From: Candidatus Omnitrophota bacterium
GTDB lineage: Bacteria > Omnitrophota > Omnitrophia > Omnitrophales > Aquincolibacteriaceae
Length of the DNA stretch: 51,592 nucleotides
Direction of reading: 5' to 3'
Assembly (NCBI GenBank): GCA_043803685.1
Contig: JAZDJU010000034.1
Coordinates: 1-51,592 of the forward strand
Part shown: positions 5,450 through 30,297 of the stretch, one piece after another
Numbering within the stretch: position 1 is the first letter of the stretch
How the letters are laid out: every line of letters starts with the position of its first letter
Position numbers and translations under genes: made by a program
Notes under the pieces: generated by a model
Seen by the model: only the letters and a program-made list of their open reading frames with translations
What the model was told of the DNA's origin: nothing
Databases searched by the model: none

Positions 5450-5721
5450 GAATCCTGCTTATGTCGTTATCGTGATTAAATGCGTCGCAAGGTATGGCTT
5501 AAATGGATTCATCAATACCTGCTTAGTTTAAATTTGAAGAAATATTTTTTGATTAGGACGAGGTTCGCCGCGGAAGTATACTACCCAAATAGAGAGAGGG
5601 CTTTTGTGCGGCCTAGCAGTGAAGACGAATTTGAAATAGTTTAATTTTTTTTGAAAAGTAATCAGCTTCTTAAATAGTCCAGTTGCTTAAGAACAGAGAA
5701 GATGCGGGAAAAGAGGCTTTT

Positions 5722-8700
5722 ATGAGTAACGATTTTCGAAAAACAATTTTGTTGGATGACGATCCAGCAGAGCTTGACTATTTCGAATCACATCAATCAA
5801 TTGCTGACGCTATTGATGTATTAATTCAGACTGAGAAAGGGAGGAAATCCATAGCTCTTATCGGTACAAGAGGAAGCGGTAAATCTTCCATCATTAATTT
5901 TCTCTCGAAGATCTTTAATCGAAATAACCATGCCAAAATCTTTACATTTGATGCCTGGTCTCACTCGGGGGATCCGCTGAGGCGTTCTTTTTTAGAGGAA
6001 TTCGTAAAGTTTTTAGAGAAAATCCATTGGGTCGAAAAAAATGAATGGCAAGTAGCGTTAGAGACTCTTAGTAGAAAGAGAGAGGAACGGGATACTAAGA
6101 CGGAGCCAATTTTAACATTACCTGGAAGGCTAATAATTGCTTCGACGATTTTTTTACCTTTGGGGTATGCGCTTTTTGGATTAATTGACAAAGAAGTGCC
6201 TGTTTCCAAGATTGTCTTTGGTTTTACGATTCAATTATGGGCGTTTGGTCTATTCATGGTTTTTCTTCCTGTCATCATTGTATTGTTGACTTGGTTATGT
6301 TGGAGACCTACCTGGAAGTGTTTCAGAAAAGAGTTTTGGACGAAGCACCGAGCCCCACATGGAGCTGATTCATTGTTTTCTTTCTTTATAAATAAAGTAA
6401 GGGAAACTAACAGTGTGACAACAATAAGAACTCCGGATCCGACCACTATTGAATTTCAAAATGTCTTTAAAGATATATTGAATGATGTCTTAGATTTGGA
6501 TGATAGTCGGAAGAATGAACGCAAGCTCGTGGTGGTTATTGATAATTTAGATAGGGTGGATCAGAGCGAGGCTTATTCTATATGGTCAACCATGAGAACT
6601 TTTTTTGATCTGTGGAGTGGACAAACTCAAAAGAATTGGTTGGAAAAATTTTGTTTAATTGTTCCTTTTGCGCCAGAATTTCCAAAGGAGGTTTTTGATT
6701 TTGATGAAGCGGCTGTTGAGCCGGGTAACGATAAACGGCAGCAAGACATTTCCAAAGGGGGGACTGGAGTTTCCTTCGTGGAAAAAACATTCCAAGCGAT
6801 TTTTTACGTACCTCTTCCAGTCTTATCGAAATGGAAAGATTATCTAGTTGCTGAGCTCGGTAAAGCATTCCCGGAGCATAAACAAAGCAAACCGGACGTT
6901 TTTCATCAAATTTATAGGATATATGATATTGCGAAAGTTCAAAAAGATGGTCCTCCAACGCCACGTGATTTGAAACTATTTATAAACAAAATGGGTTCCC
7001 GCAATCGCATTTGGGGAAATAATATAGAATTAGCGCATCAAGCAATTCATGTGCTTTATTTTGATGAGATGCAAAAAGGCCGATCATTTGATCTTATTAA
7101 GTGGTCTGTTATTGAAAAGCGGATTTTGAATATGTTTGACAACGAAGAGCTGCAGCGGAATTTGGCCGCTTTGCATTTTAATGTTAAAGCAGATATCGCA
7201 TTGCAAGCTTTGGCGGGAGGGCAGGTCAGGGCGGCTTTGCAAAAAGGGGACAAGGATAGTCTGAAGCAGTTATCAGAGAACGTTACTGGGTTTTTCACAG
7301 TTCTTGAAAGAGAGGTTACCGATAATTGCATGTCTTGGGTTGAAGCGGAACCTAATACGATACCTATGGCGGCTATGGCGATGGGTGTGTTTGCTGATCG
7401 GTCTGCCCCTGAGTGGAACCGAATCGAAGATCACTTGCAAAGCGCCGCTTCAAAAGTTATTGAATGGCGATCTGTCGATGAACAAGTTGCCGAGGGGCTC
7501 TCAATCGTTATTCAAAGAGCAACTGCCAAAGGTGCTGAATCCGTTCTCGAAAATCTTATTGATAGTATTTCAAGGACAGCACCAGAGCAAAAGTCTGATC
7601 AAGGCAAGACTGTTATACCAAAGCCGATCGAGTTAATTAAACAACACGTCAAGGGACTTGGCCGAATTCTTAAAGCATTTGAACGCACAGGACAAGAGCG
7701 TCTAAGGGGGAGGTTTAGGATCCCTGGGATTGAGAGAACTTATGTTCAAGTGCTGAGTTGCCTTGGGTTGGAGTCAGATGCTAATAATGTTGCGCAGTAT
7801 TTTGTCCCTACAGCTGATGGTGCTAAAGTTGTGGAGGAATTTTCACGAATTTGTAATGAGGGACAGTTTTTAGATATTCATGCTCAATCAATCCGGATGG
7901 CAATTAAGATTGGTCCGGAATGGCCTTGGCATAATTTAATAGGTCCCCTTCATACTCGATTGCAAAATACCAATAATTTAACACCGGTTGAGATAACTGG
8001 ATGTGTTCTTGCTTTTAATTATTTAGTTAATAGCAAGGTTGTCCAAAATGCGGAAACTTCTCTGGAGGAATTATGCAATCAAGGGCATCTTTTCCACCAT
8101 TTAGCAGCCGTATCGAATGATGCAAAGGGTTTTGCCTCATGCTTAGTGCCGTTAACTTATTACAATCCGACCGGACAATTGTCTATACGTCGGCCTGTCG
8201 GGAATGTCGCAAGCGGTTTGCAGGAATATAGAAATGCTCTTGCGAATCCCCTAAGTAAGAAGGATGCTGTCGACGCATTTTCTAACATGTTAGTTGATAT
8301 GAATAAATTAGCCGAGTTTCTAGAAAAAACTCAAAATGTTACCGAGCAACACGCTCTTGTCTCGCATGTTTTTAAAGCAACCTTATCAACTGAAAACGGT
8401 TATAAAAATCTTCCTTCGACCCAGCTAGTAAAAGCTTATCATTGCTACCGTTCACGAATTGATGACGCGTTGTTTGAAAAGCACATTTTGAATCTTGTCG
8501 AAAAAGACAGCCTTATGAAAGTTCTTGGGGAAAATGTATTTGAAAATGAATGCGCGTCGCTATATCTGGAAGTAATTCGAGCTAAAGATAGATGTAAAGA
8601 GCAGGTCGCCTTCTTTATTGATTTTTTATTAAATGGCTTGCGCAATGTCCATGCTGATATCTGGAAAAAGCAGTTGTCGTCTGAAGGCGATATCCTTCGG

Positions 8701-9273
8701 TTGGTCATTGAATTGGCCAAACAAGGAAGTCCAGTCGATTTGGCAGAACATTATCATGAGGCTCTTTTGGACCATGCGCGAGATGTTATGGACGAAAAGA
8801 TTTATCCAAGCAAGTTGGTTGGTGAATGGAACTATGTTTTGCTGGCCTTAAAAGATGATTGGAAAGAAACTTTTTTGAAAAATATGAGGGATAAACTTCT
8901 TATTGAAGCTGAAAATCAGAAAAAAACTAAAATTTTGGAGTTGTATAGTGATGCGTATAAGGATAATCAATTTCTGGAAGATAAATCAGAAGATATCGTT
9001 AGACGAATGTTAACGCATATTGTTAAACGAAGTGATGGGAAAGAGCTCGCTACAATAGAAGGCTTTCTTAAGTTCAAGGCGGACCTTTTTAAGAAAGCTC
9101 CGAAAACAGTGCGAAGTATTTTCTCTGAAGTTCTCTGCGATGCCCTGCAGGGTTCGAAAGAATCTGCAGATGACAGCAAAGCGAGGTTGTCAAATATAGC
9201 CGCTTTATTAGGGATTCAAAAGTCCGGGAATCCAAAATCTTCAGATGAAAACGTGGCCCCTCCCGCGGCTTAG
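5722..9273 (+). CDS. KAP-family P-loop NTPase with two TM helices and a long helical C-terminus
   Basis: Walker A GTRGSGKS, FDAW, two TM segments inserted in the NTPase, Walker B VVVIDNLDR, FVEKTF and TPRDLK. ATG 5722 follows AAGAGG. AT-rich coding sequence. Confidence 0.85.
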   Translation: MSNDFRKTILLDDDPAELDYFESHQSIADAIDVLIQTEKGRKSIALIGTRGSGKSSIINFLSKIFNRNNHAKIFTFDAWSHSGDPLRRSFLEEFVKFLEKIHWVEKNEWQVALETLSRKREERDTKTEPILTLPGRLIIASTIFLPLGYALFGLIDKEVPVSKIVFGFTIQLWAFGLFMVFLPVIIVLLTWLCWRPTWKCFRKEFWTKHRAPHGADSLFSFFINKVRETNSVTTIRTPDPTTIEFQNVFKDILNDVLDLDDSRKNERKLVVVIDNLDRVDQSEAYSIWSTMRTFFDLWSGQTQKNWLEKFCLIVPFAPEFPKEVFDFDEAAVEPGNDKRQQDISKGGTGVSFVEKTFQAIFYVPLPVLSKWKDYLVAELGKAFPEHKQSKPDVFHQIYRIYDIAKVQKDGPPTPRDLKLFINKMGSRNRIWGNNIELAHQAIHVLYFDEMQKGRSFDLIKWSVIEKRILNMFDNEELQRNLAALHFNVKADIALQALAGGQVRAALQKGDKDSLKQLSENVTGFFTVLEREVTDNCMSWVEAEPNTIPMAAMAMGVFADRSAPEWNRIEDHLQSAASKVIEWRSVDEQVAEGLSIVIQRATAKGAESVLENLIDSISRTAPEQKSDQGKTVIPKPIELIKQHVKGLGRILKAFERTGQERLRGRFRIPGIERTYVQVLSCLGLESDANNVAQYFVPTADGAKVVEEFSRICNEGQFLDIHAQSIRMAIKIGPEWPWHNLIGPLHTRLQNTNNLTPVEITGCVLAFNYLVNSKVVQNAETSLEELCNQGHLFHHLAAVSNDAKGFASCLVPLTYYNPTGQLSIRRPVGNVASGLQEYRNALANPLSKKDAVDAFSNMLVDMNKLAEFLEKTQNVTEQHALVSHVFKATLSTENGYKNLPSTQLVKAYHCYRSRIDDALFEKHILNLVEKDSLMKVLGENVFENECASLYLEVIRAKDRCKEQVAFFIDFLLNGLRNVHADIWKKQLSSEGDILRLVIELAKQGSPVDLAEHYHEALLDHARDVMDEKIYPSKLVGEWNYVLLALKDDWKETFLKNMRDKLLIEAENQKKTKILELYSDAYKDNQFLEDKSEDIVRRMLTHIVKRSDGKELATIEGFLKFKADLFKKAPKTVRSIFSEVLCDALQGSKESADDSKARLSNIAALLGIQKSGNPKSSDENVAPPAA

Positions 9274-9326
9274 CCAACCAGCTGTAATGTCGTAATTTTC
9301 CTTAGGCGCGAGATTAATACGGCCAT

Positions 9327-9755
9327 ATGACTGAAATCGAATCTTATCTAGCATTATTAACAGGAACCCATCCCTCGATTCAATCTATTTGGCTAATTGG
9401 ATCAAGAGCTAATGGCGCATCAAATGTTAATTCCGATTGGGACTTGATTGTATTTGCAACGGAAGATATTTTACAAAATCTTCAGAGCTGTAGATCGATT
9501 CATGTGAGAGAAATAGATCTTCTCGTTGTCTATAATTGCAAAGGTGATTTTAAGAAACCGTGGGCTGAGCAGGACGGAAATTTCAAAACCGGCAATCTTG
9601 AAGATTGGGGTTGGCAGGAACAATCGGAAACAAAAGCTACGTATAGGCAACAATGGCGGAAAAAAGGGCCGACCACAGTTGATGGCTTTACTGAATTGGA
9701 TTATTGTGATGAAAGGTTAATAGCCCAAAAGGTATGGCCTCAACGAACCTGTTAG
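9327..9755 (+). CDS. Minimal nucleotidyltransferase (Pol-beta superfamily, MNT-like)
   Basis: IWLIGSRANG....SDWDLIV (GS + DxD) and a later IDLLV strand. Confidence 0.75.
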   Translation: MTEIESYLALLTGTHPSIQSIWLIGSRANGASNVNSDWDLIVFATEDILQNLQSCRSIHVREIDLLVVYNCKGDFKKPWAEQDGNFKTGNLEDWGWQEQSETKATYRQQWRKKGPTTVDGFTELDYCDERLIAQKVWPQRTC

Positions 9756-10132
9756 ATCTAAGCGCGTTTTACATAGTGTAATAATGGAATGTCGTTCTTT
9801 ACATAAAACATGAGATTCTTTTGTGAGTGATGAATGAGAAAAAAGAAGCGGAAAAGAGTGGGTGCGAAGAAAGGGGGGGATGCAACCTCCGAAGTTTCTC
9901 GGGACATTCGAGCCCTTCAGAAAGCAATATTAACTGAGGAGGAACGAAAAGGATGAAGCGTCAGATATCTGGGGCTGTCAATATCCATCCCAGGATTTCA
10001 TAATTTGCGTGCATTGCGAGATTGTTCCTATATAGACAGGTGACGACAGAATGGGGCCAGGGATGACCGACTGCCGTCTTTTGCGTCATTGATGTCTGAC
10101 TAAACTGCTTAAATGGAAAGTTCAAAGGAGGG

Positions 10133-10618
10133 ATGATGACGTCTATGGATTGTTCTACCATTGTCACTTCGTTGGTGACCAGCATCGGAGGAACCGGAGT
10201 TTTTATCCTTATTGTTGCGTTCTTTGGGAAAAGGTGGCTCGGTTCAAGAATCGAAGAAGCTATTAAACATGAGTATGGCAAGATGCTAGAAGAATTTAAA
10301 TTTTCTTTTCGACAGCGAGAGCAAGCGGCCGCGATCGCTAAGCTTTTTTCGAAGTGGATTAAATATAATGGGCTGGAGGATAAGTTATTGAAAGAAAGCG
10401 AAAAGCGGGATCATTTCGAAGAAATAAATAGGCTGAATTGGGAATTAGCGATTTGGATTCCTGATGAAGAAATTGTGAAAAAAATAAACGGAAAGCTTGC
10501 TAATAACAATGAAGAAGATATTAGAAGCTTAATTTTGGACGTGAGATCTCTTGTCTTGGGCAAGAAGTCTGATGGCATAAATGGAACTGAGCTGACCTAT
10601 TTTTCAGTAAAAAACTAG
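10133..10618 (+). CDS. Hypothetical protein with an N-terminal TM helix
   Basis: 161-aa ORF after RBS AAGGAGG, with hydrophobic segment GGTGVFILIVAFFG followed by a helical region. Confidence 0.7.
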   Translation: MMTSMDCSTIVTSLVTSIGGTGVFILIVAFFGKRWLGSRIEEAIKHEYGKMLEEFKFSFRQREQAAAIAKLFSKWIKYNGLEDKLLKESEKRDHFEEINRLNWELAIWIPDEEIVKKINGKLANNNEEDIRSLILDVRSLVLGKKSDGINGTELTYFSVKN

Positions 10619-10690
10619 CGCCGAAGTAGTAGTTCATTTGATGTAAAGTCACTTTTTGTGTGAAATGCGAAATTGTTCCTAAGGAAAGAC

Positions 10691-11281
10691 ATGAAAAAAC
10701 AAACGAATAAGATCTGTCAGTTCAGGATCGCGCTTCAGGATGTCAGTCCGCCAATCTGGAGGCGGATCCTTGTGCAAAGTGATATATCGCTTCACCGCCT
10801 CTCATCTACGATCCTGCTCGCGATGGGCTGGAGCGGGGGGCATTTGCATCAGTTTGAGATCAATGAGAAATCCTACGGGATACCTGATGACGATTTTGAT
10901 TCGGATGAGGACATGAACGATGAACGAGGCTTCCGGCTCGACGACTTGGATCAGGGGGCGCTGAAATCGTTCACCTTCGAATATGATTTCGGTGACGGGT
11001 GGCGACACGCGGTCCAGCTGGAGGATGTCTTGGAGCCAGCCAAGGGGCAAAAATATCCTCTTTGTATTAGCGGCGCCAGGAACTGTCCGCCGGATGATTG
11101 CGGCGGCACGGGAGGCTATGAGGAATTTCTCGCCGCAATCCGGAATCCCAAGCACCCGGAGCACAAATCCATGACCGAGTGGATCGGAGGTAGGTTTGAT
11201 CCCGAAGCGTTCAATTTGGATCAAGTGAACGGCGTTCTCCAGGATGTGGCGAAATCAGAGAAGCAGTGGTGGGGCTGTTAG
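10691..11281 (+). CDS. Plasmid pRiA4b ORF-3 family protein
   Basis: PPIWRRILV, HLHQF, FEYDFGDGWRH, G.RNCPPDDCGG..GY and FDPE.F signature motifs. Confidence 0.9.
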   Translation: MKKQTNKICQFRIALQDVSPPIWRRILVQSDISLHRLSSTILLAMGWSGGHLHQFEINEKSYGIPDDDFDSDEDMNDERGFRLDDLDQGALKSFTFEYDFGDGWRHAVQLEDVLEPAKGQKYPLCISGARNCPPDDCGGTGGYEEFLAAIRNPKHPEHKSMTEWIGGRFDPEAFNLDQVNGVLQDVAKSEKQWWGC

Positions 11282-11493
11282 AAAGATCGCGCACATCAAG
11301 CCGGGTCTTCCTGCGTTTTAACACTGGCGAGATTGAAAGCTGTCTGCAGGCTGTCACGGAGCAACGAGACCCCGAACGATGTTCGTGACAATTTATTTCT
11401 AGTATAAAAACGTTCGCAAACATTGAACGGACCCTTCTTAACTCCATGTCCCATGAGGGGCTATCTACTATATAGAAGGGAGCTATCCATGAA

Positions 11494-11712
11494 ATGAATA
11501 AGCAAGACGGTATTTCAAGGTGTGAAGTCTCGGGGAAGTTGCTGGATGTCGACGAATTGTCGCAGCGCCTTGGGGTTAAGGTTAAGACCGTGTATTGCTG
11601 GGTCCATGCCCGGCAAATACCCTATGTCAAAGTGGGGCGCTTGGTAAAATTTGATCCTCTGGATATCTCACAATGGGTGGAAAGCAGAAAAGTCAGGTCA
11701 ATCCGGGGTTGA
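11494..11712 (+). CDS. Excisionase-like HTH DNA-binding protein (HTH_17)
   Basis: LLDVDELSQRLGVKVKTVYCWV...IPYVKVGRLVKFDP; lies next to the integrase. Confidence 0.8.
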   Translation: MNKQDGISRCEVSGKLLDVDELSQRLGVKVKTVYCWVHARQIPYVKVGRLVKFDPLDISQWVESRKVRSIRG

Positions 11713-11737
11713 CAAGGTTTAACAATGTTGATAACCT
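11709..11737 (+). promoter_or_regulatory. Putative sigma70 promoter with overlapping dyad, upstream of the HTH-integrase genes
   Basis: TTGACA (11709) - 17 bp - TAACCT with a TG extension. The imperfect inverted repeat AGGTT-TAACA-A-TGTTG-AT-AACCT spans the spacer. Confidence 0.45.
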
Positions 11738-11758
11738 GTACCTGGCTTTGGGAACGAC

Positions 11759-11944
11759 ATGGAAAAAAATAAGCGATTCTATCTTGATGAGGTCGTCAAA
11801 ATGCTCGGGATACCGCGGAGCTCCTATTACAACTGGGAGCGTGCGGGGAAGATTCCTTTGCCGAAGCGTGATCCGATGAGTCATTATCGCTATTGGACGG
11901 AAGAAGACCTTCTGAAACTTAAGAAGGTCACGGGGAGAGGCTGA
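11759..11944 (+). CDS. MerR/AlpA-like small HTH protein (possible recombination directionality factor)
   Basis: EVVKMLGIPRSSYYNWERAGKIP.P.RDPMSHYRYWTEEDL, a MerR-type winged HTH. Confidence 0.8.
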   Translation: MEKNKRFYLDEVVKMLGIPRSSYYNWERAGKIPLPKRDPMSHYRYWTEEDLLKLKKVTGRG

Positions 11945-11945
11945 A

Positions 11946-13190
11946 ATGGGCGTTTTTCAAAAAAAATGCGGAGTTTGTGATGGGTGCCGGGAGGGTCGCG
12001 CCAAGTGTAAGGCGGGGACCTGGTATGTGGATTATTACGTTAACGGCCGTCGTCGCCGCGAAACTGCCCCCAATAAGGCGATGGCAGAGGACCTGTTGAG
12101 CAAACGCAAGATACAGATTAAAGAGAATAAGTATTTCGACATCAGGAAGGAAAGCCGCCTTACGTTTCGTGAGCTTTCAGAGAAGTATCTCAAACATTGC
12201 GAGCTGACCGGAAAAAAATCGTGGAAAAGCACTGATGTTGGCAACATGGAACATCTGGTCGATTATTTCGGGGCTATGCTCGTCAGTGAGATAAGCTCTG
12301 AAGATGTTGAGGTGTACAAGCAAAAGCGTTTGAAAGATGTGAAAATTTCGAAGAGGCGGAAAATCGAAATGCATGTGAAGCCCTCTACGATTAATCATGA
12401 ACTTTCCTGCATGCGAACCGCGATCAATAAAGCGATTTATGAATGGCGTGATCCCGAAAATAAGCGGCTTCCATTGTTTGCAGGTCCCAATCCCGCCGCA
12501 AGGTTTAAAAGACTCAGGGAAATTTCAAGAGACCGTTTTCTGACCAAGGGCGAATTGATAAAGCTTCTCGAGGTAAGTGATCCGGAGCTTCGCCAGTATA
12601 TCCTTGTGGCCGTAAACACGGGTATGCGAAAAGGGGAAATGCAGGGCATGACCCCTGCGGCTGTGAAGCTTGATTTAAATTACATTTTTCTTCCTGAAAC
12701 CAAGAACGGGGAAACGCGGTATGTGCCGACGAACGAAACCGTGAAGTCAATTCTCCGAGGTTCTTTTGATTTTTCATATAACCCGCGGAAGGCCTTTGCG
12801 ACTGCGCTGGGTCGCGCGGAGATTAAGGGCTTGCGCTTCCATGATCTCCGGCATACGTTTGCCAGTTATTTGGCGCACCTTGGGGTGGATCTTTATACGA
12901 TTTCTGTATTGCTTGGACATAAGACCAAGGGGGGCGTATACTCCATCACCGCTCGCTATACCCATTTGCAGCAGGACCATCTTTTGACGGCGGTTAAAAA
13001 ATTGGATACCTATTTGAGCGATGTTTTGCCTGGTTACAGAGAGGGTACATATAATGAAGGGCGGGGCGGATTCAAGACGAAGGAGCCTGGGACTGTTTGG
13101 GCGGTCAAGTACCGTCAATTACCCTCTAAGATGGACACTTTTTGGACACCTGGGCGAAAGCGTAAATCTCTAACTACTTTATTCAATTAG
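11946..13190 (+). CDS. int: Tyrosine recombinase / phage-type integrase
   Basis: Catalytic set intact: TGMRKGE (R), TKNG (K), HDLRH (HxxR), LGH and TARYTH (Y). N-terminal arm-binding beta strand WYVDYYVNGRRRRE and a core-binding domain. Confidence 0.95.
   Translation: MGVFQKKCGVCDGCREGRAKCKAGTWYVDYYVNGRRRRETAPNKAMAEDLLSKRKIQIKENKYFDIRKESRLTFRELSEKYLKHCELTGKKSWKSTDVGNMEHLVDYFGAMLVSEISSEDVEVYKQKRLKDVKISKRRKIEMHVKPSTINHELSCMRTAINKAIYEWRDPENKRLPLFAGPNPAARFKRLREISRDRFLTKGELIKLLEVSDPELRQYILVAVNTGMRKGEMQGMTPAAVKLDLNYIFLPETKNGETRYVPTNETVKSILRGSFDFSYNPRKAFATALGRAEIKGLRFHDLRHTFASYLAHLGVDLYTISVLLGHKTKGGVYSITARYTHLQQDHLLTAVKKLDTYLSDVLPGYREGTYNEGRGGFKTKEPGTVWAVKYRQLPSKMDTFWTPGRKRKSLTTLFN
13132..13149 (+). 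repeat. Tandem TGGACAC repeats, putative integrase arm-type binding sites
   Basis: TGGACAC at 13132 and 13143 (11-bp period), about 50 bp from the tRNA remnant. Confidence 0.45.
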
Positions 13191-13198
13191 GGATAAGG

Positions 13199-13255
13199 GG
13201 ATAGAGCATCAGCCTTCTAAGCAGGGGGTCCCGCGTTCTACTCGCGGCAGGCGCG
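13199..13255 (+). pseudogene. 5'-truncated tRNA-Arg(TCT) remnant, att junction of the island
   Basis: GGATAGAGC-A-TCAGC-CTTCTAA-GCAGG-GGGTC-CCGCG-TTCTACT-CGCGG-CAGGCGC-G gives the D-loop 3' half, anticodon TCT, T-arm and 3' acceptor strand. The 5' acceptor/D-stem strand is absent, the anticodon stem has an A-A mismatch and the T-loop is TTCTA. Confidence 0.8.
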
Positions 13256-13475
13256 TTTTTTCGTGATGTAAAGAAAAAACGTCCTTCCGTTTTTACCTGA
13301 AGCGTATTTGTCCGTGAAGCGAATCCGCTGAGGTTTAATTTTTTTGTTTTAATGCGTTCCCCGCCACAAAGCGCTGGCGGGTCTGTCCAACAGCGCTTTG
13401 CGGACGGGTCCGCCGCGCTGTTTGGCGGAGAATCGCGCCGGGGTCGTAGTTTCTTGAGGACATTTTAGTGGTGCG

Positions 13476-13512
13476 AAAAGCCCAAAGGGGGGGTGCCCCT
13501 TTGGGCTTTTTT
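13476..13512. terminator. Intrinsic (possibly bidirectional) terminator
   Basis: AAAAGCCCAAAGGGG-gggtg-CCCCTTTGGGCTTTT(TT), a perfect stem with A and T tails. Confidence 0.75.
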
Positions 13513-13648
13513 GTCTTATGTGGGGCGAAAAAATAATGTCCAATTGACTAAGTTTAGATGAAATTTCTATTGATAAATGAGTCATTTTTGTCTTAACCGT
13601 ATTGTTTTGAATGAGTTGCGTGATTTAAAAGATAATAACATAGCCATC

Positions 13649-13677
13649 TTGACAAAATTACAATCATTCGACATATT
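13649..13677 (+). promoter_or_regulatory. Putative sigma70 promoter of the large secreted protein
   Basis: TTGACA - 17 bp - CATATT in a very AT-rich intergenic region. Confidence 0.4.
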
Positions 13678-13861
13678 TTTACTGTATGAAGCGATTTAAT
13701 AAATCAAAACATAGCGTTTATATATGAATATAATTTTATGAAGAATAAATCTAAATATAAATTCTCATGGTTTGAAATTTCTAGGGAAGCGTGCTACGTT
13801 TCAGCAGTACGAATTAAGCATGTTTTAAAAGAATTTAGTTGTTAACGTATTGGGAGGCATG

Positions 13862-16800
13862 ATGCTTTCAGGTGGGAATCAAAAACAAGTTAGACGGATC
13901 GTAAGCTTCCTGACGATTTGTTTTTTTCTTGTTTCCCAGGTCTCATTTGCGAACCCTGGGGCAGGGATCGAGGTCGCTGCGAATCGGGAAATGCCCGGGT
14001 TCCTCAGGATCGATATTCCCACGGAGCTGGCAAGTCTTGATGGCATCTGGGAAGCGCCTTCTTCGGTCGATTCCAGGGTCGTCCTGCATATCCAGAATGC
14101 TCACGCCAATTATGGGGCCCAGAAGAAGATCGAAGAGCTTCTGGAGTATCTGAACAAAACTTATGCCATCAATACGATCTTTGTCGAAGGCGCGGCTGAG
14201 GACCTGAACCCCGACTACCTCAAACTCTTCCCTGACAAAGCGCGGAATCTGGAACTTGCGGATCTCCTGGCCCAGCAAGGCGAACTTACAGGCGCCGAAC
14301 TTTATCTTTTAGAAGCAGACTACGGACCACAGACCACAGACCCTAGACAAAAAAGGGATTCAAAGCTTCAGTCTCCAGTCTCCAGTCTCCAGTCTGGCCC
14401 CGTCAGGGGCGTGGGGATCGAGGACGCGGGACTTTACCGCAGTAACTACGAAGCTCTCAAGAAAGTCTTTGGCGCCGAGGCGCTTGTGAACCGTTACCTC
14501 CAGGGGTATGAATCCCGGCTTGAAGCGCTGTCCTCAAAGATCTTCACGAATGATCTCCGAAGAATTCTTGCGGATTGGCAGAAATTCGAGAAGGGACACC
14601 GCGAGTTCATGCCGTATATTCGCAGCCTTGCTGCCGATGCGAAGCGTGTCCTGGATCTCGATCTGGAAAGCCTGTTCTCACAAGTGGAATGGCCGCAGAT
14701 CACGCGCCTTCTTGTCCTTCAGGGGATGGAAAAAGAACTGGATACTGCCAAGGCATTGGAAGAGAAAGATAAGCTCATAAGCTTTTTGAAAGCCAAGGGC
14801 GTTTCCCCGCGAATCATTGCAGAAGTGGAGAATTTCAAGGAACAGCGTTTGAGCGTCCGCCAAGGCGAGGGCGAAATGATGGAACCTCGGGATGTCCTCG
14901 AAGCGCTTGTAAAGGAAGCCGGTCCCAACGGTTTCCGGTTCAGTGAGTATCCCGCGTTCAGCCTTTACGCCGGGTATCTGATCCTCAAAAGCGAACTGGA
15001 TGCCAAAGGGCTTTTTGAAGAGATCAAAGCGCTTTTCGGGAAGATCCTCGGCAAGCTTGCGGAAAGTCCGCAGCAGAAGAGCCTGCTGGAACTTTATCGC
15101 GACGAGGAACTCGCCCGGAAACTCTTGAGCCTCGAACTGAGCCGCCGGGATTGGAAGGATGCTCTCGGGCGTAAGACCGAGATCCAGATGGATTCGATGG
15201 TCTCCCGTCTCAAAGATCTTAGTAGCGCAGTCACAAAAGAAATGAATCTTGCACCCTCCGACCTCGAAACCAGGAAACTCAGCCCGAAATTTCAAGAGCA
15301 GATACTGGATCTTTATGGCTCGGCATTCAGCTTTTATGAGTTTGCCCGCCAGAGAGAATCCATGTTCTATGAGAAGATCAACGCGGTGATGGGGAAAGGC
15401 TCTTCAAGCAAAGCCGTCCTGATCACCGGAGGTTTCCACACCGACGGCATGACCGATCTTTTCCGCGAACATAACATCAGCTACGGTGTTCTTACCCCGC
15501 GCCTTATGGAAAAGAGCGACGAGAAACTCTACCGGAACACCATGCTGCAGAATGAAAAGCAGCTTTTCACGATCTCGTATTTGGAATTGGCGAACGGCGC
15601 CACCTCCCTTGCGACTCGAAAAGATCAGGGGTTTGACCCGTCAAAAGAGCTGGGCGATTTGATCAAGGCTTTTCGCAGCAAGCTTCCTAAAGAATATGCG
15701 ACGGGCCAGGGAGTTGCGGATGCTTTTAATGGTTCAATAGCGGCCAAGGCGTTTGGAATTACACTGGAATTCCAGCCCGAGAAGACATCTGAAACGACTG
15801 GCATCGATACCTATAAGGTCAAAGGTCTCCAAAAGTTCGAGGGCATCGAAGTTCCCGTCTCCCGCTCCGAGGCGCGAAGTTTGTTGGATATTTTTCAGCG
15901 GGGTATTGAAGCCAAAGTTAGTGCGTATTCGAACGGTTATCCGCTATCTCAATCAGCGTTTGATGAGGCTGCTGAGCGGACCCGTGTACTCATGCAAGCT
16001 GACTCGATTTCCGGTACGGTAGATGCCGTGGCGGCGAATTTTTTTACGAGCATCGATGGTTTAACTGATCCTGAGGACACCGCCCTTTTGAATGTCTTGT
16101 TAAAAACAGTTTTATTTGATGAGCAGGGACGTTTTCGCGAAGACCGCGATCGCCAGGCTCGAATCGCGAGTATTGTCTCTGAAGCTCGTCCGGGAGGGGC
16201 GTGGGCGATGCTTTCGAATGAGGCTAAACAGAAACCGTTAAGCCAAGTAGTGACACAAATGATCGGGTTGGTTCAGCCCATTATTAACACTCGCAAGGGA
16301 AAAGCAGGGGTCGATACAGGTCGGCTTGAAGCAGAAATCAGGTTTGCGGGCAATGTTTCTCGCCCATATGAAGTTGCTACCCTGGCTCAAGGGTTAGCCT
16401 CGGAACTCGGCCGTTTGAATTATCTAGCTACACCTGAGCAGACCGAGGCGATTCAAAATGTTGTTGATCAGTTGAAAAAAATTGAAGGCGAATATCGGCG
16501 CCGTTCGGAGGCGAGGTTGGGGGAATTGTACGGCTATATGATGCAGAAAGTGATGTTGCCGGCCGTGCTTGCCATGTGGCTTGCCGTGCCGTCCTTTGCT
16601 GCTGCCGAGAACAGCCAACCCTATAGCGTACGCCTTGATCCCACGATGGGGATGGAGGCCGGAGCTACAAATCTTTACTCGGCTTACAGGGGGCTGAATG
16701 AATTTGTGATCAATCCCGTGACCGCGCACATTCCTTATGTTGAAGATAACGCATTAGGTCGACTTGCTAAATGGGGCACCTTGGATAATATAACCGTAGG

Positions 16801-19800
16801 TTTCGTGGTCGCTCAACACGAGATCTTCGGTCATGGTGCAAGGTCACGAGGGGAAGGGGATTATGGTTCGACGTATGAAATTGAATTTGCCCCCCCCCGG
16901 CAATGGGAGGATTTAAAATGGAGCACGCTCGTGGGTTGGTGGTCGGGAGCTGCTGCGCGGGGCGACATGACGTATACGGTCGATGGATCTCTCGCAACAA
17001 CCGCCGGCGGAATGGAAAGTACCCAAGTGATGTCGGACGAGATCCGCAGAAGCGTGTACCGGAATGGCGGGACTTATCAGGATGGGCTGCTTTACTATCT
17101 TGCGAAACTTGACTTGTCTAATTACATCTTCAATACGTCCAACCCGGGTTCCCACCCAGGCCAACAGCTTTTAAATGGGGGGGGCGCTAGCAATGACGTC
17201 CAGAAGTATTATGAGAATATGGTTAAAAAGTATGGAGAAGATGCAGGGCTTTGGGAGGATATGCAGCGCGTGGCTCTCTGGAACGCGCTCGATCCCACGC
17301 TTTGGATGGCGTTGTGGGAGCAGTTGGATTATGTGGGGAGAGGCAACAAGGATTTCACATTGCCACGGATCCTGCCTTACACCGGGGCCAACCTTACGCC
17401 GCTCGGTCCGGAATATTATCTGGGGGCGAACTTCACTGCGGCCGAACTTTACTGGGACATTTATGGAAGACGAGGTGTCGGTCCATCCGGAGATTTCTAC
17501 GGAGTTGGGTTGCGTGTCGGAGATATCGATTTAGGCAATGGTTACTTTTTAGGGGTGAACCTGGATGGGTGGAAGCAGGAGGGCGAAGTCGGATATTCCG
17601 CAGAAGCGACGATCGGCCGGAATATTACCGATAATCTCAAAGTCGTTTTGGGTGCGGGCTATAAGACGGATGGCGATCTCAAAGGGCAACCCAGCGACGA
17701 AGGTCCGTCGGTATCCATAAAGTTCGAGGTTCCTTTTTCTAAACCTCGCTCCGAGGTGAGGGGGAAGGAGATCGAGGAACTTACGTCGAGTCTTGCCCGG
17801 CTTTCCCCTGAGGTTTTGGGATCGCTTGCCGAGATGTCGAAGCCGTCCTATAGTTTTTTAAGTGCGACACGGCAGAAGGAAAATACGGCCAAACATACTG
17901 CGCTGCTTGATATTTTGAAGAAGAATGGAGTGATCGTGCCCGAGGCGTTGGGGGCGCAATGGCCGGAACAGGGAAGAGGCATGGATGGGGCGTATGTGAC
18001 GGCACCTTTTCTGGAGATCGTCCGAAAGATCGTTACTGACACGATCGACGGACAAAGACTTGCCGAAAGGACGGCGTTTGTTAGGGGGCAGAACCGTCGC
18101 GTAGCACAGGTCCGTGGGCTTGCGGAAGGAGCTGTTTTAGCGCTCGAAAATGAGGAGCTCCGTGGGGGTTCCCTTCCTGGGCAAATGTATGGAACTGCTT
18201 ATACCCCAGCGGTGCCGTTTCCCGCGACGAGTCATTTTGATAAGTTTGAGGAGAGTGTTGCCGGGTTGCCGGCAGAAGTTCTCGCGGAGCTGGAACGATT
18301 ATCGAAAATAACGCCTGCTTCTGTGGAGGCTACGACAAAGAATCATGAGGGGATCCTGGCTCTTTTGGGACAGCAAGGTGTGATTGTACCCCTGGCGTTG
18401 GGCGTCGAATGGCCCAAGGATGATACGAGTGTTAGCGGGGATGGAGTGGACCGGAACGTTGCCGCGCCGTTGTTGGAGCGGATATGGATCGTTCTGGGAG
18501 ATAAAACCAAAGTAGCTAACGCAGTGCTCGAGAAGCAACGGTTTGAGAAAATCGCTGAAGATATCCGTGCCCGGAACCGTCGCGCGGCGCAGGTCCGTGG
18601 GCTTGAGGAGGGAGTAGCCCTCCGGCTCGGAGCGGAAGGAGCGGATTATCCGCAGTTTACGTCGAGTATGGCCGGGCTTTCCCCTGAGGTTTTGGGATCG
18701 CTTGCCGAGATGTCGAAGCAGTCCTATAGTTTTTTAAATGCGACACGGCAGAAAGAAAATACGGCCAAACATGCTGCGCTGCTGGGAGTTTTAGAGAAGA
18801 ATGGAGTGATCGTGCCCGAGGCGTTGGGGGCGCAATGGCCGGAACGTGGGAGAGATATGGATGGGGCGTATGTGACGGCGCCTTTTCTGAATTTCGTTCA
18901 AAAAGTTGTAAGCCAAAATGCTGCTGAACCGGCCGCCTCCCGTTCGGAAGCGAGGGTAACGGCTGTTCGTGAAGCAATCAACCAAGCCGATTTTTCGGTT
19001 GTCGGGGAAGCTAAGCTTGGGACGAATTTCGAGGCGGTTGGAAAGCTGGAGAGCCGGGGAGCGATAGGGTTCGTCATTGTTGCGGCCGTGGCTGGGATGG
19101 AGTTCGACAATAGGACGGATAAATTGAAGCCGGAGCAAATGGCTGACGTCATTGTGCAACTTGCAAGCGCGAGTGTAGCGAAGGCTGCGGGCTGGGTCCA
19201 GGCGATCCGGGATATTTTTGACGGGTTGGCTGCGAAGTTATTTCCAAAGACTGAAAAAGTTTCGATCATGGACAAGCCCGGCGTGGTGTTCGCTCAGCTA
19301 GGCAGGGAAGCTTTGAAAGATATTGGAGCGGGTGACCTAGCGCCATTGGGGAATAAATTTCAGGAGATGGTTTACATCGTACCTGTGCAGAATGAAGCGG
19401 GGAAAAAAGAGGTTCAGCCGCTTATCGATGAGGCCAAGGTTCGCTTGGCCGCTATTCTCAAAGATCTGGATGCGAATAAGCGATTTGACATTGTGCCGAT
19501 GGTGATTGATAAAAACAGATCGAGAACGGCGCGAGCGGCGCTCGCAAAACTCGCAAGTCAGAGAATGAAGACGATCGCGGCGGTTGCGCCCGGCCAGCGT
19601 AATTATGTTCTTATGGGTGCTGGTGAAGGGTTTTTGGATGTTTTTAACGAGGGGGGATTGCTGCCGGCAGTTATGATCAACGAAGGTTATAGCAAGGATG
19701 CCAACCGTCGTGTTGCAACCTCAACTCTCGCATCGATCGTGTCCCAGAGGCTCCTGAGCGCCAGTGAGGTTGATGCGATCAGGGAAGTTCTTAGTGGAAA

Positions 19801-19900
19801 GAAAGATGAAAAAGGCTTCTATTCGTTTAGTGCGGAAGCCCTGAATAAGATGCTGACGATCGCCATGCAGGTGGCTCAATCGATACAGTCCGCCGCATAA
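13862..19900 (+). CDS. Large (~2010 aa) secreted modular protein with RSE[AV]R-delimited modules
   Basis: Uninterrupted ORF (TTG 13850, ATG 13859/13862 after GGAGG). Sec-type signal peptide ending VSFA-N. N-terminal domain with HIQNAH, VEGA, GIED and TGGFH; four RSE[AV]R motifs; internal repeats. Confidence 0.85.
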   Translation: MLSGGNQKQVRRIVSFLTICFFLVSQVSFANPGAGIEVAANREMPGFLRIDIPTELASLDGIWEAPSSVDSRVVLHIQNAHANYGAQKKIEELLEYLNKTYAINTIFVEGAAEDLNPDYLKLFPDKARNLELADLLAQQGELTGAELYLLEADYGPQTTDPRQKRDSKLQSPVSSLQSGPVRGVGIEDAGLYRSNYEALKKVFGAEALVNRYLQGYESRLEALSSKIFTNDLRRILADWQKFEKGHREFMPYIRSLAADAKRVLDLDLESLFSQVEWPQITRLLVLQGMEKELDTAKALEEKDKLISFLKAKGVSPRIIAEVENFKEQRLSVRQGEGEMMEPRDVLEALVKEAGPNGFRFSEYPAFSLYAGYLILKSELDAKGLFEEIKALFGKILGKLAESPQQKSLLELYRDEELARKLLSLELSRRDWKDALGRKTEIQMDSMVSRLKDLSSAVTKEMNLAPSDLETRKLSPKFQEQILDLYGSAFSFYEFARQRESMFYEKINAVMGKGSSSKAVLITGGFHTDGMTDLFREHNISYGVLTPRLMEKSDEKLYRNTMLQNEKQLFTISYLELANGATSLATRKDQGFDPSKELGDLIKAFRSKLPKEYATGQGVADAFNGSIAAKAFGITLEFQPEKTSETTGIDTYKVKGLQKFEGIEVPVSRSEARSLLDIFQRGIEAKVSAYSNGYPLSQSAFDEAAERTRVLMQADSISGTVDAVAANFFTSIDGLTDPEDTALLNVLLKTVLFDEQGRFREDRDRQARIASIVSEARPGGAWAMLSNEAKQKPLSQVVTQMIGLVQPIINTRKGKAGVDTGRLEAEIRFAGNVSRPYEVATLAQGLASELGRLNYLATPEQTEAIQNVVDQLKKIEGEYRRRSEARLGELYGYMMQKVMLPAVLAMWLAVPSFAAAENSQPYSVRLDPTMGMEAGATNLYSAYRGLNEFVINPVTAHIPYVEDNALGRLAKWGTLDNITVGFVVAQHEIFGHGARSRGEGDYGSTYEIEFAPPRQWEDLKWSTLVGWWSGAAARGDMTYTVDGSLATTAGGMESTQVMSDEIRRSVYRNGGTYQDGLLYYLAKLDLSNYIFNTSNPGSHPGQQLLNGGGASNDVQKYYENMVKKYGEDAGLWEDMQRVALWNALDPTLWMALWEQLDYVGRGNKDFTLPRILPYTGANLTPLGPEYYLGANFTAAELYWDIYGRRGVGPSGDFYGVGLRVGDIDLGNGYFLGVNLDGWKQEGEVGYSAEATIGRNITDNLKVVLGAGYKTDGDLKGQPSDEGPSVSIKFEVPFSKPRSEVRGKEIEELTSSLARLSPEVLGSLAEMSKPSYSFLSATRQKENTAKHTALLDILKKNGVIVPEALGAQWPEQGRGMDGAYVTAPFLEIVRKIVTDTIDGQRLAERTAFVRGQNRRVAQVRGLAEGAVLALENEELRGGSLPGQMYGTAYTPAVPFPATSHFDKFEESVAGLPAEVLAELERLSKITPASVEATTKNHEGILALLGQQGVIVPLALGVEWPKDDTSVSGDGVDRNVAAPLLERIWIVLGDKTKVANAVLEKQRFEKIAEDIRARNRRAAQVRGLEEGVALRLGAEGADYPQFTSSMAGLSPEVLGSLAEMSKQSYSFLNATRQKENTAKHAALLGVLEKNGVIVPEALGAQWPERGRDMDGAYVTAPFLNFVQKVVSQNAAEPAASRSEARVTAVREAINQADFSVVGEAKLGTNFEAVGKLESRGAIGFVIVAAVAGMEFDNRTDKLKPEQMADVIVQLASASVAKAAGWVQAIRDIFDGLAAKLFPKTEKVSIMDKPGVVFAQLGREALKDIGAGDLAPLGNKFQEMVYIVPVQNEAGKKEVQPLIDEAKVRLAAILKDLDANKRFDIVPMVIDKNRSRTARAALAKLASQRMKTIAAVAPGQRNYVLMGAGEGFLDVFNEGGLLPAVMINEGYSKDANRRVATSTLASIVSQRLLSASEVDAIREVLSGKKDEKGFYSFSAEALNKMLTIAMQVAQSIQSAA
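14316..14396. repeat. Heptamer-periodic inverted repeat inserted in frame in the large gene
   Basis: CAGACTA CGGACCA CAGACCA CAGACCC TAGACAA ... CAGTCTC x3 CAGTCTG. Confidence 0.75.
17781..18889 (+). repeat. Intragenic direct repeats (~230 bp, 17781-18013 and 18657-18889) with a diverged middle copy
   Basis: Near-identical DNA at an 876-bp offset encoding LSPEVLGSLAEMSK...GVIVPEALGAQWPE...DGAYVTAPFL. A diverged protein-level copy lies near 18245-18480. Confidence 0.9.
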
Positions 19901-28893: not shown

Positions 28894-28896
28894 ATC

Positions 28897-30135
28897 ATGC
28901 CATCATTTGAATATTGGATCAAAGACAAGACGGGCAAAGATATCAAGGGCTTTCAGGACGCTCAGGACGTTCAGGACCTCGTTCATCAGTTGAAGGCCCA
29001 GGGTTATCTTGTCGTTCGCGTCGAGCAGACCAAAAAGGCTCCCTCCATTCTGAGCGTCCAAAAAGGGACGACTGCCAAGAAGGCTCAGGGGAAATCCGGG
29101 AACGTGAAGCTTGACGATCTCGTTATCTTTTCAAGGCAGATGGCCACGCTTGTCGCGTCGGGGATCCCCTTGATCCAGGCCCTGGACATTCTGGCGACGC
29201 AGGTGGATAAGGCGAAATTCAGGATGATCCTTCAAAAGATGCACGGGGATGTTCAAAGCGGTAAGAGCTTCTCCGAAGCCATGCAATTGCATCAGAAGAT
29301 CTTCTCGCCGCTCTTTATCCACATGGTCCGCGCGGGGGAAAGTAGCGGGAAACTTGAAGAGATCCTGGACCGGGTGGCCCACTATTTTGAAAAGTCGAGC
29401 GCCCTTCAGAAAAAGGTCAAGTCGGCCTTGATGTATCCCGCGGCGGTTTCGACCATGGCTTTCGCCATTACGTTCTTCATGCTTGCTTTTGTGATCCCCC
29501 AATTCGCGACGATCTTTGATGGCCTCGGGGCGAAACTGCCGGCGCCAACCCAGATATTGATCAATGTCAGCAATTTTCTTGCGGTCCATTGGTGGTGGAT
29601 CCTCGCTGTGCTGGGAGGCTTCATTTTTTTGTTCCGAAGGTTCGTTGCGTCTCCGATGGGCCGGCTGTCTTGGGATTCTTTCACGCTGCGCATGCCCATT
29701 TTTGGCCCCATCATTTTGAAGGTTGCGGTCAGCAAGTTCGCGCGCACGCTCTCCACCCTGGTGCGTAGCGGCGTGGCGATCATCGCGGCGTTAGAGATCG
29801 TTTCCAAAACATCGGGGAATGCCCGGATCGAAAAGATCATCACGGACCTTATGGGAGCTGTGAAGCGCGGGGAAAGCATCGCCGGACCTCTTGAAAGAAG
29901 CGATATTTTTCCTTCGATGGTCGTTCGCATGATCGCGATCGGGGAGGAGACCGGAGAGCTTGAGGAAATGCTAACGAAGATCGCGGATTTTTACGATACC
30001 CAGGTGGATTCCGCGATCTCTGGTCTTACGTCGCTGATCGAGCCCGTCATTATAGCCTTCCTGGGGATCGTGATCGGCGGTATTGTCATCGCCCTCTTCC
30101 TGCCCATTTTGACCCTAACCCAAGCGATCAAGTGA
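28897..30135 (+). CDS. pilC: Type IV pilus platform protein PilC (GspF family)
   Basis: FSRQMATLV.SG, AGESSG.L, SALMYP, IGEETGEL and LIEP.II. Confidence 0.92.
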   Translation: MPSFEYWIKDKTGKDIKGFQDAQDVQDLVHQLKAQGYLVVRVEQTKKAPSILSVQKGTTAKKAQGKSGNVKLDDLVIFSRQMATLVASGIPLIQALDILATQVDKAKFRMILQKMHGDVQSGKSFSEAMQLHQKIFSPLFIHMVRAGESSGKLEEILDRVAHYFEKSSALQKKVKSALMYPAAVSTMAFAITFFMLAFVIPQFATIFDGLGAKLPAPTQILINVSNFLAVHWWWILAVLGGFIFLFRRFVASPMGRLSWDSFTLRMPIFGPIILKVAVSKFARTLSTLVRSGVAIIAALEIVSKTSGNARIEKIITDLMGAVKRGESIAGPLERSDIFPSMVVRMIAIGEETGELEEMLTKIADFYDTQVDSAISGLTSLIEPVIIAFLGIVIGGIVIALFLPILTLTQAIK

Positions 30136-30297
30136 CCTCTGGGCCATGCGCTAAAGGCGTCTGGACACTTTTTAAAATTTTTGGATATAACTCTAATAGC
30201 AAAAAAACTAGTTTAGTTATCCATCTTGTTGCCGTATTATTTAGAGTAGTTTAGACTAGCATTAGGCAGTGGCAAACATAGAAACAGGAGGAATAAC

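Follow-up and report, generated by a model that had tools for sequence, protein, structure and literature searches.

A repeated pentapeptide delimits the modules of a large Omnitrophota protein family and may mark sites of polyprotein processing

Introduction

Omnitrophota are described as widespread, uncultured bacteria with a probable predatory or parasitic lifestyle (PMC10066038). Their genomes encode numerous proteins of great length that lack annotation, and whether such a protein acts as a single chain or is cut into parts is an open question. The question is raised by a gene on contig JAZDJU010000034.1 of a Candidatus Omnitrophota bacterium (GenBank assembly GCA_043803685.1), of which positions 1 to 51,592 of the forward strand were analyzed and are referred to here as the window. 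A single + strand open reading frame (ORF) runs from an ATG at 13859 to 19900 and encodes 2013 amino acids (aa), or 2016 aa from an in-frame TTG at 13850; an identical 2013-aa sequence is P0002 in the protein collection. The pentapeptide RSE[AV]R occurs in it four times, each time at a junction between unrelated-looking blocks. An original prediction, made from the sequence of the window, read the protein as a secreted chassis with fixed ends whose swappable cargo is released by cleavage at the motif.

Does this pentapeptide mark the places at which the protein is cut, and what would cut it? The reading that we favor, with confidence a little above even, is that the window protein belongs to an Omnitrophota-specific family of modular polyproteins that would be cut at the pentapeptide, with the N-terminal domain (N-domain) as the best candidate for the protease.

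Results

A recurring pentapeptide divides the window protein

The four copies of RSE[AV]R compare with 0.0063 expected from the protein's own composition (P of at least four copies ~6.5e-11). When the protein was shuffled 20,000 times, at least one copy appeared in 126 shuffles and never more than two. The copies lie exactly at 15863-15877, 16502-16516, 17747-17761 and 18941-18955, with the codons originally listed, and the sizes first read for blocks B (208 aa), C (410), D (393) and E (314), as well as the AQSIQSAA end, all agree. A six-frame scan of the 51.6-kb window for RSE[AVLMIG]R gave two further matches only. One, at 41560-41574, lies by hand reckoning in a frame that differs from every listed ORF of at least 30 aa there, and the other, at 17426-17440, is antisense within the same window ORF. 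The parts of the gene are as follows.

13859..19900, + strand: whole gene, 2013 codons from the ATG, stop codon at 19898-19900
13859..13951, + strand: Sec-type signal sequence; basic K, RR, then a hydrophobic stretch, then ...VSFA ahead of NPG
13952..15862, + strand: conserved, family-defining N-domain, candidate TIKI/TraB-like hydrolase; H82 (14102-14104), E110 (14186-14188), E188, R499 (15353-15355), GGFH524-527 (15428-15439)
15863..15877, + strand: delimiter 1, RSEAR, from the six-frame scan
15878..16501, + strand: module B, 208 aa, without detected relative in sequence comparisons
16502..16516, + strand: delimiter 2, RSEAR, from the six-frame scan
16517..17746, + strand: module C, 410 aa, by its stand-alone relatives a complete pre-protein; signal-like stretch at ~16538-16606; HEIFGH motif
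17747..17761, + strand: delimiter 3, RSEVR, from the six-frame scan
17762..18940, + strand: module D, 393 aa, internally repeated by repeat comparison, without delimiter between the repeats
18941..18955, + strand: delimiter 4, RSEAR, from the six-frame scan
18956..19897, + strand: conserved C-terminal domain (C-domain, block E), 314 aa, ending ...SIQSAA; clusters with other last modules

The N part, signal sequence included, comprises 668 aa from the ATG. Searches of the window protein against Pfam and NCBIfam gave nothing at E <= 1 except a chance-level HAD hit.

The delimiter is confined to proteins led by the N-domain

The family is defined by the ~640-aa N-domain, for which there is no Pfam model. 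A phmmer search with this domain against 1.84 billion representatives gave 6,834 clusters at E <= 1e-3 and 781 at E <= 1e-30, the longest proteins being 7,498 aa. Searching with the whole window protein retrieved 40 proteins, its own included, each covering ~30% of the query, and every named relative is from Omnitrophota. Block-wise BLAST against the 39 relatives aligned the N part with 39 of 39, block E with P0003 only and blocks B, C and D with none. With one genome taken for each species, relatives are encoded in at least 474 stretches. From these, 64 loci were retained, in ~54 assemblies by hand count, with titles naming Omnitrophota, Omnitrophica or 'uncultured bacterium' and, in four instances, 'uncultured Planctomycetia'. 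The signal peptide that had been proposed for the window protein is also predicted here from the sequence, as a Sec-type one with a basic region, a hydrophobic core and a small-x-small cleavage region, and a hydrophobicity heuristic found the same layout in 47 of 52 family ORFs from the genome loci.

The pentapeptide accompanies this family. RSExR is present in 27 of 29 close relatives, with up to 13 copies per protein, and at 33 of the 64 genome loci. A scan of relatives for motifs of this type had been suggested, and across 174 family proteins (430,225 residues) it returned 565 copies of RSExR against 10 expected (at least one in 114 proteins, at least two in 91), together with 240 copies of RAExR, which is the preferred form in some lineages. 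Permuted or altered control patterns gave 2-26 matches each, except R.ESR with 80, a pattern that also matches RSESR. Looser RxExR forms occur in P0010 and P0011. The first motif lies at about residue 580-730 in most relatives.

Outside the family the motif is rare. Non-family ORFs, taken as six-frame ORFs of at least 150 aa from the loci and the window (243,684 residues), contain 41 R[SA]ExR sites. Twenty-nine of these fall in seven ORFs that are tandem paralogues, frameshifted pieces or 5'-cut ORFs directly upstream of a family gene, and the remainder occur at about the chance rate. Every motif-carrying ORF with a visible N-terminus has the N-domain.

Selection acts on the peptide, with biased codons

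The profile of 866 unique sites limits the constraint to the five residues and their nearest neighbors. At x, V (268), A (172), M (91) and T (67) predominate, and D, E, K, R and P are almost never found. S, A and P are overrepresented at positions -3 to -1. Position +1 favors A, S and T and has 14 Pro against 41 expected, and positions +2 to +8 are Glu-rich.

The original prediction had placed the constraint at the level of protein rather than of DNA. The first half stands, as an amino-acid mark is under selection. All six Arg codons and both Ser codon families are represented at the motif. However, the use of codons there is biased: the first Arg codon is CGC or CGT at 102 of 120 sites (background 42%), the Ser codon is TCC at 72 of 120 (background 21%) and AGY at 8 of 120 (background 35%), and the x codon ends in G at 66% of 148 R[SA]ExR sites. 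The resulting DNA consensus is C CGC TCC GAG GYG MGG G; nucleotide conservation is confined to -2..+15 nt, and synonymous positions carry 0.37-0.54 bit. This bias among synonymous codons points to a possible DNA-level component and leaves the second half of the claim in doubt. RNA structure at the motif was considered as well. Motif-centered windows of 75 nt fold 3 kcal/mol more stably than control windows, but this excess vanishes with composition control (z -0.38 vs -0.24, p = 0.31).

Delimiters fall at the borders of exchangeable modules

Cutting at R[SA]ExR yields 798 non-first modules with a median length of 248 aa. For clustering, ORFs from the loci were added, giving 851 inner modules of at least 40 aa. 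A partner was lacking for 594 of the 851, and 93 clusters are common to at least two proteins at >=70% mutual coverage, often at different ordinal positions. Orthologues with ~70% identical N-domains have completely different middles and share no middle module. These counts agree with the swappable middle that had been predicted. When the modules were compared with 715 non-family ORFs of the loci, 5 weak matches were the only result.

Homology between the tails of 101 proteins of the R type, those with R[SA]ExR, tends to break at the motif. Homology blocks start no more than 20 aa after a motif in 104 of 340 instances, compared to 28.5 with random motif placement (maximum 43 in 200 trials), and end no more than 20 aa before one in 36 of 172, compared to 14.6 (maximum 23). 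Together with the enrichment in the family and the module clusters, these edges support the notion that the motif is a selected, protein-level mark at junctions of unrelated modules. Domain boundaries had been named as a further point of comparison, and in the motif-bearing relatives no best-scoring Pfam stretch overlaps a motif. In P0026 a response-regulator receiver (716-833) fills the module between motifs at 696 and 837, and in P0029 an HPr domain (1103-1182) fills the module between motifs at 1086 and 1218. P0003 and P0012 contain arrays of 59-84-aa repeat units, each bounded by RSExR.

In the case of module C, the earlier impression of a whole exported protein is borne out by a second signal-like start and by matches to whole exported proteins. 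Its stand-alone relatives P0176-P0178 are 392-456 aa long, have their own signal peptides and carry HE[IA]FGHG. The BLASTP alignment of module C with P0177 covers residues 26-420 of 424, starting just past both signal sequences and stopping 6 residues ahead of delimiter 3 (RSEVR). Signals at module starts are a wider pattern. Among 700 unique modules of at least 100 aa, 14 have Tat-like starts (control 0.25), for example SRRDFL followed by a hydrophobic stretch, 39 have Sec-like starts (control 11) and 2 have a lipobox (control 0.2). Other modules hold CMP kinase, HPr, receiver, HATPase, APH, ARMT1 and PGM domains with no membrane span between the N-terminal signal and the domain. As judged by sequence, some modules are complete, whole proteins, which is one of the properties expected of a self-processing polyprotein. 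Intein-type insertions would be expected to have a Hint/intein splicing domain at module borders, and the Pfam results for the window protein and the 39 relatives include no such family.

No relative was found for modules B and D. Module B has no match among the 39 relatives or 1014 modules and no Pfam or NCBIfam hit, and module D has no relative among the 39 family proteins or in the module clustering. The repetition noted earlier in block D is a 247-nt direct repeat (17781-18027 and 18657-18903, 90% identity, 876 nt apart). Module D thus seems to have duplicated internally not long ago, and no delimiter arose between the copies. A 41-nt pair is also found in module D, at 18091-18131 and 18574-18614. 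In the remote member P0039, residues 564-1206 correspond to a cofactor-independent phosphoglycerate mutase with its halves apparently in swapped order, 681-960 resembling positions 247-507 of the Protein Data Bank (PDB) chain and 987-1206 resembling positions 5-214.

A divergent C-domain closes the chain

Last modules form clusters of their own. In the seven largest, the members are last in their proteins in 22 of 22, 7 of 7, 7 of 7, 7 of 7, 6 of 6, 5 of 5 and 5 of 5 instances. Block E of the window protein clusters with the last modules of P0003, P0012, P0043 and the locus L004, and a profile built from it gave 15 module matches, all 15 of them last modules. The prediction of a fixed chassis is thus upheld in that the N-domain is present in 39 of 39 relatives and the C-domain family is always last; it has to be qualified in that the C-domain is far more divergent, with 25-30% identity between orthologues whose N-domains are ~70% identical.

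A stand-alone C-domain was matched once, in a sequence labelled partial, and otherwise the domain was found only within family proteins. The AlphaFold2 (AF2) model of the C-domain is poor (pLDDT 58, pTM 0.48). A Foldseek search of the PDB had no match at E <= 0.001; the best, at E = 8.6e-3 with TM <= 0.24, was of a generic Rossmann-like kind, and the ESM Atlas yielded nothing usable. Most family C-termini consist of an amphipathic helix followed by ...[AS][AS]A, the window protein ending in SIQSAA (window 19850-19897). This end could be a conserved C-terminal tag that directs, for example, degradation or sorting.

A sister clade uses a different delimiter

A quick maximum-likelihood tree of 43 N-domains has a fully supported branch that parts a clade of 27 from a clade of 16. 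R[SA]ExR is carried by 23 of the 27, and one of the four exceptions has four copies of RPExR; 15 of the 16 are without R[SA]ExR. A second delimiter, [GA]xSLG, occurs 57 times in nine of the 174 proteins (P0131, P0135, P0141, P0144, P0146, P0151, P0156, P0161 and P0168), compared to 2.4 copies expected and 0-5 in permuted controls. Its first copy lies at residues 581-626 in eight of the nine, the same kind of position as that of R[SA]ExR. Of the 174 proteins, 87 are R-type and 9 are G-type, and none carries both delimiters. Seven of eight G-type N-domains form one FastTree clade (support 0.96) with no R-type member inside. The motif-less clade that is most remote has long tails that contain ordinary enzyme domains, and no repeated delimiter was found there.

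The N-domain carries the residue pattern of TIKI/TraB-like hydrolases

H82, E110, E188, R499 and GGFH524-527 are conserved in 155-157 of 157 N-domains, and with G111 and Y193 counted in, the key residues are conserved in 152-157 of 157. The same order of residues (H41, E67, E159, R228, GxxH252) is present in a TraB/GumN alignment of Escherichia coli YbaP and seven plasmid genes. The N-domain therefore has the catalytic set of the TIKI, TraB, ChaN and erythromycin-esterase (Ere) group as a pattern, not as a significant full-length alignment. TIKI-family enzymes are described as having a 2His/2Glu signature with a 28-residue His-Glu spacing, with which the N-domain agrees (PMC6254334).

Comparisons by profile give this pattern modest statistical backing. 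PF04187 (ChaN/Tiki) matches P0039 at E = 6e-6, with 26.8 bits, below the cut-off of 27.7, and P0165 at E = 0.006; two of 43 members match at E <= 0.05. In hhalign comparisons, the R...GGFH block aligned with the TraB/GumN R...GxxH block at E = 2e-4 and 1.4e-3, whereas cross-controls gave 0.28 and 0.49. Comparison of the N-domain with the single E. coli YbaP sequence by hhalign was not significant, NCBIfam searches of 20 remote members gave nothing relevant, and the Atlas returned only the N-domain's own Omnitrophota clusters.

Stand-alone, tail-less N-domains of 516-552 aa were seen at L052, L057 and L061, on a branch of their own in the motif-less clade. In the window gene, a perfect 7-nt tandem repeat (CAGTCTC x 3.9, 14369-14395) encodes ...LQSPVSSLQS... 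in a lineage-specific insertion of the N-domain.

Genomic context

Two gene neighborhoods recur. In the first (pheT-rarA-x-GENE), the family gene is followed by DUF1844, an LPG-synthase membrane protein, aroQ, accB and accC; in the second (gcvPB-lipB-x-uvrD-GENE), it is followed by plsC and an Exo_endo_phos gene. The surroundings of the window copy are different again, with an integrase island upstream and miaB-like, pgsA/pgpA and cinA genes downstream. Several assemblies have two or three loci, and five loci have tandem copies. At locus L059 (DCTJ01000069.1, 3-19220), two tandem family genes are spread over several overlapping frames, and pieces of the N-domain lie at 3-1295, 9989-11263 and 11119-15237; the broken frames are either real decay or assembly frameshifts.

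Directly upstream of the window gene is a low-GC stretch (5683-13511, 0.40-0.47 vs ~0.53) with genes for a KAP-family NTPase (5683-9273), a PRiA4_ORF3-like protein (10673-11281) and a phage-type integrase (11946-13190). The stretch, probably an integrated element, ends in a strong terminator-like hairpin (13475-13511), 3' of which promoter-like sites lie at 13607-13677, both upstream of the gene. Searches of the window found no tRNA genes and no Rfam match. Elsewhere in the window, 25433-35346 holds a type IV pilus/type II secretion cluster with two tandem T2SSE ATPases, a T2SSF protein, a pilin with an N-methylation motif, PilM and a secretin.

Discussion

A proposed scheme for cleavage at the pentapeptide

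In the scheme that we favor, the chain would start with a Sec signal and the ~640-aa N-domain, continue with 0 to ~20 hypervariable modules and end with a fast-evolving domain of ~300 aa. Each module would be bounded by R-[S/A]-E-x-R (x mostly V, A, M or T), with S, A or P before it and A, S or T plus an acidic stretch after it. The pentapeptide would serve as a proteolytic processing site, cut most likely after the second Arg, and each module would then start at its own N-terminus. The strict R, E and R, the class-restricted x and the shortage of Pro at +1 give the motif the look of a protease site, and the cut is placed after the second Arg because signal peptides begin 1-10 residues past the motif. 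The best candidate for the enzyme is the cis-encoded N-domain, as a hydrolase similar to TIKI, TraB and erythromycin esterase. It is the prime candidate because the motif is found only in chains led by the N-domain and because the invariant residues of that domain are hydrolase-like. What the sequences show is the motif, its restriction to this family and its place at module borders, along with the chassis domains, the modules that are whole proteins and the alternative delimiter of one clade; the cut, its place within the site, the enzyme and the compartment are inferred.

Several observations weigh against this scheme. Twelve of 23 members of ~1000 aa that consist of the N- and C-domains are without any RxExR. 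Since these minimal members mostly lack the motif, the delimiter accompanies inserted modules rather than the chassis. The biased codons of the motif hint at an additional DNA-level role. A motif is crossed by 142 of 340 homology blocks (206 at random), so that related proteins also share multi-module stretches. R-type and G-type N-domains are separated by two alignment columns only (L95/I and N196/D), with no obvious specificity pocket, and since these are the only distinguishing columns, the covariation of delimiter and N-domain could simply reflect shared descent. Likeness to TraB/GumN is marginal by whole-profile hhalign (E = 0.015 and 0.036, probability <3%) and not significant for the N-terminal catalytic block (E = 0.4 and 0.26), and searches of the PDB with the N-domain by sequence and by profile gave no relevant match.

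Compartment is a further difficulty, as the Sec-bearing N-domain and part of its supposed substrates may be in different compartments. Modules with Tat or Sec signals and cytoplasm-type enzymes would need to be released in the cytoplasm, which conflicts with an exported N-domain. Release inside the cytoplasm would explain the own-signal modules and cytoplasm-type enzymes no less well than would export of the chain as a whole. The conflict could be solved by a trans-acting cytoplasmic protease, by processing before the N-domain is exported, or by the modules acting outside the cell that makes them, for instance in prey. The last would agree with the predation or parasitism that has been proposed for the phylum (PMC10066038).

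Alternative explanations

The first of these solutions leads to a separate explanation, in which the polyprotein is processed in the cytoplasm by another protease, the ORF is a device for co-expression and the N-domain is just the first product. The freed proteins would stay in the cytoplasm or enter the Sec, Tat or lipoprotein pathways on their own. This would account for modules with their own Tat (14 of 700), Sec-like (39) and lipobox (2) starts, for module C as a complete pre-protein, and for CMP kinase, HPr, receiver, HATPase, APH and ARMT1 domains without a preceding membrane span; the Sec-bearing N-domain would itself leave the cytoplasm. On the other hand, restriction of the motif to family proteins across ~0.24 million flanking residues is unexpected for a general protease. 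There is also no consistently adjacent protease gene, although M48/MA-type peptidases lie a few genes downstream at three of six scanned loci of the context in which they occur. We regard a separate protease as unlikely while giving it appreciable weight.

It is also conceivable, at a distinctly low probability, that the pentapeptide is left uncut and acts as a hinge, as a tag for docking or sorting, or as a target of modification (for example at Ser) within one long multi-domain chain. The flanks, rich in S, A, P and E, resemble linkers, and the tails of the motif-less clade are equally long and multi-domain, which indicates that long uncut tails are viable in the family. However, an ordinary linker would not call for the invariance of R, E and R or for the near-complete exclusion of charged residues and Pro from x. 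Ala in place of Ser at 240 sites argues against an obligatory modification of Ser, and Tat, Sec and lipoprotein signals right after the motif make little sense in an uncut chain.

A third possibility is that the 15 nt are primarily a DNA junction, used in recombination or as microhomology for the in-frame insertion of cassettes, with the peptide as a by-product; such a role could coexist with cleavage. The biased synonymous codons with their consensus, the wholesale replacement of middles between close orthologues, the position of motifs at homology breakpoints and the absence of the motif from most module-less minimal forms would all be expected of a junction. As the main function we give it little credence. 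Six Arg codons, both Ser families and the alternation of S and A are all in use, the synonymous information amounts to 0.37-0.54 bit with nothing conserved beyond -2..+15 nt, selection at x is for a class of amino acids, and another peptide takes these positions in the sister clade. The loci lie in two conserved housekeeping contexts, with no recombinase as a regular neighbor.

Very improbable is a signal in RNA or translation, such as an internal Shine-Dalgarno-like GAGG pause, ribosome skipping or a site of mRNA processing. The preferred codons do give purine runs of the GAGG(N)GAGG kind, with G as the third base of x in 66%, and motif windows are 3 kcal/mol more stable than controls. The stability difference is gone after composition control, however, the window has no Rfam match, a start codon is not consistently placed after the motif, and the amino-acid pattern is maintained across non-synonymous codon families. 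Lastly, a chance pattern or an assembly or annotation artefact that fuses neighboring genes, to which the origin of the window protein from one contig might point, is practically refuted by the P of ~6.5e-11 in the window and by the same architecture in hundreds of independent assemblies.

Comparison to known systems

MARTX toxins, to which the original prediction drew a parallel, have glycine-rich repeats, use type I secretion and lack an N-terminal Sec signal. They are cut after Leu by an inositol-phosphate-activated cysteine protease domain. The window family resembles them in that conserved termini surround variable modules that would be freed by cuts between them. It differs in its strict pentapeptide, its full pre-protein modules, its Sec signal and its environmental Omnitrophota host, and Pfam found no MARTX domain (RTX or glycine-rich repeats, cysteine protease domain) in the window protein, which thus falls outside that class. 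Kex2/furin systems act on dibasic sites in the eukaryotic secretory pathway through a trans-acting subtilisin-like protease; their precursors (pro-hormones, fungal KEP proteins) are similar in having many units separated by a short basic motif.

With regard to the enzyme, the N-domain shares with the TIKI/TraB/PrgY/ChaN/erythromycin-esterase group an H, an E 26-28 residues on, a further E, an R and GxxH. In contrast to that group, it has ~310 residues, helical by eye, between E188 and R499, compared to ~69 in TraB/GumN, no Pfam model reaches its cut-off for the N-domain, and the N-terminal block is not significantly alignable. The superfamily is described as including site-specific endopeptidases, among them the MARTX effector RRSP, a sequence-specific endopeptidase of the TIKI family (PMC6254334), and it has been suggested to take part in the maturation of peptides (PMC8939145).

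The family has the phylum in common with the giant Omnitrophota ORFs (archaeovorin-type and others), which are likewise long, signal- or membrane-bearing and poorly conserved, with enzyme-like Pfam domains. The available text of the papers on these ORFs covers C39 and S8 peptidase domains and proteins of at least 10,000 aa, and in that text the N-domain, the C-domain and the delimiter are not mentioned. A 2023 preprint on giant genes of Omnitrophota proposes that C39 or S8 domains carry out cleavage and states that the cleavage points are unknown. A study of long Omnitrophota proteins (10.64898/2026.06.07.730766) has 0 occurrences of cleav-, motif or proteoly-, and this 2026 preprint reports the same kinds of enzyme domains in signal-bearing long Omnitrophota proteins. 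Literature searches with Omnitrophota, Omnitrophica and the motif strings, whose coverage excludes preprint supplements and subscription journals, found neither the family nor the motif described.

Polyproteins of picornaviruses and potyviruses encode their protease in cis and are cut at short conserved motifs. The likeness to these lies in unrelated complete proteins joined in one chain, a short lineage-specific motif and a candidate in-chain protease, and different lineages have different motifs, here R[SA]ExR and [GA]xSLG. The difference is that the family resides in cellular genomes with housekeeping neighbors, several paralogues per genome and hypervariable modules. A broader proposal, which we put forward tentatively and think possible rather than probable, is that a major clade of Omnitrophota follows a virus-like polyprotein strategy. 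Complete genes, among them those for cytoplasmic enzymes and for Sec, Tat and lipoprotein precursors, would be captured in frame between the two ends of a host gene, expressed as one chain and freed by a dedicated TIKI-like protease at lineage-specific cut marks, and this may explain the giant ORFs of the phylum as chains of proteins that can be separated.

Significance

To the question of whether the very long proteins of Omnitrophota are single chains or are cut, the analysis contributes a family with thousands of members, a sharp delimiter with an alternative in a sister clade, and a candidate in-chain protease. The delimiter provides a sequence rule by which such proteins can be cut into units for structure prediction and annotation. 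If cleavage does occur, the family would correspond in bacteria to the polyproteins of viruses, and it would offer a route for the in-frame shuffling of whole genes. The pentapeptide thus offers a concrete handle on how the very long proteins of this phylum are built and, perhaps, on how they are processed.

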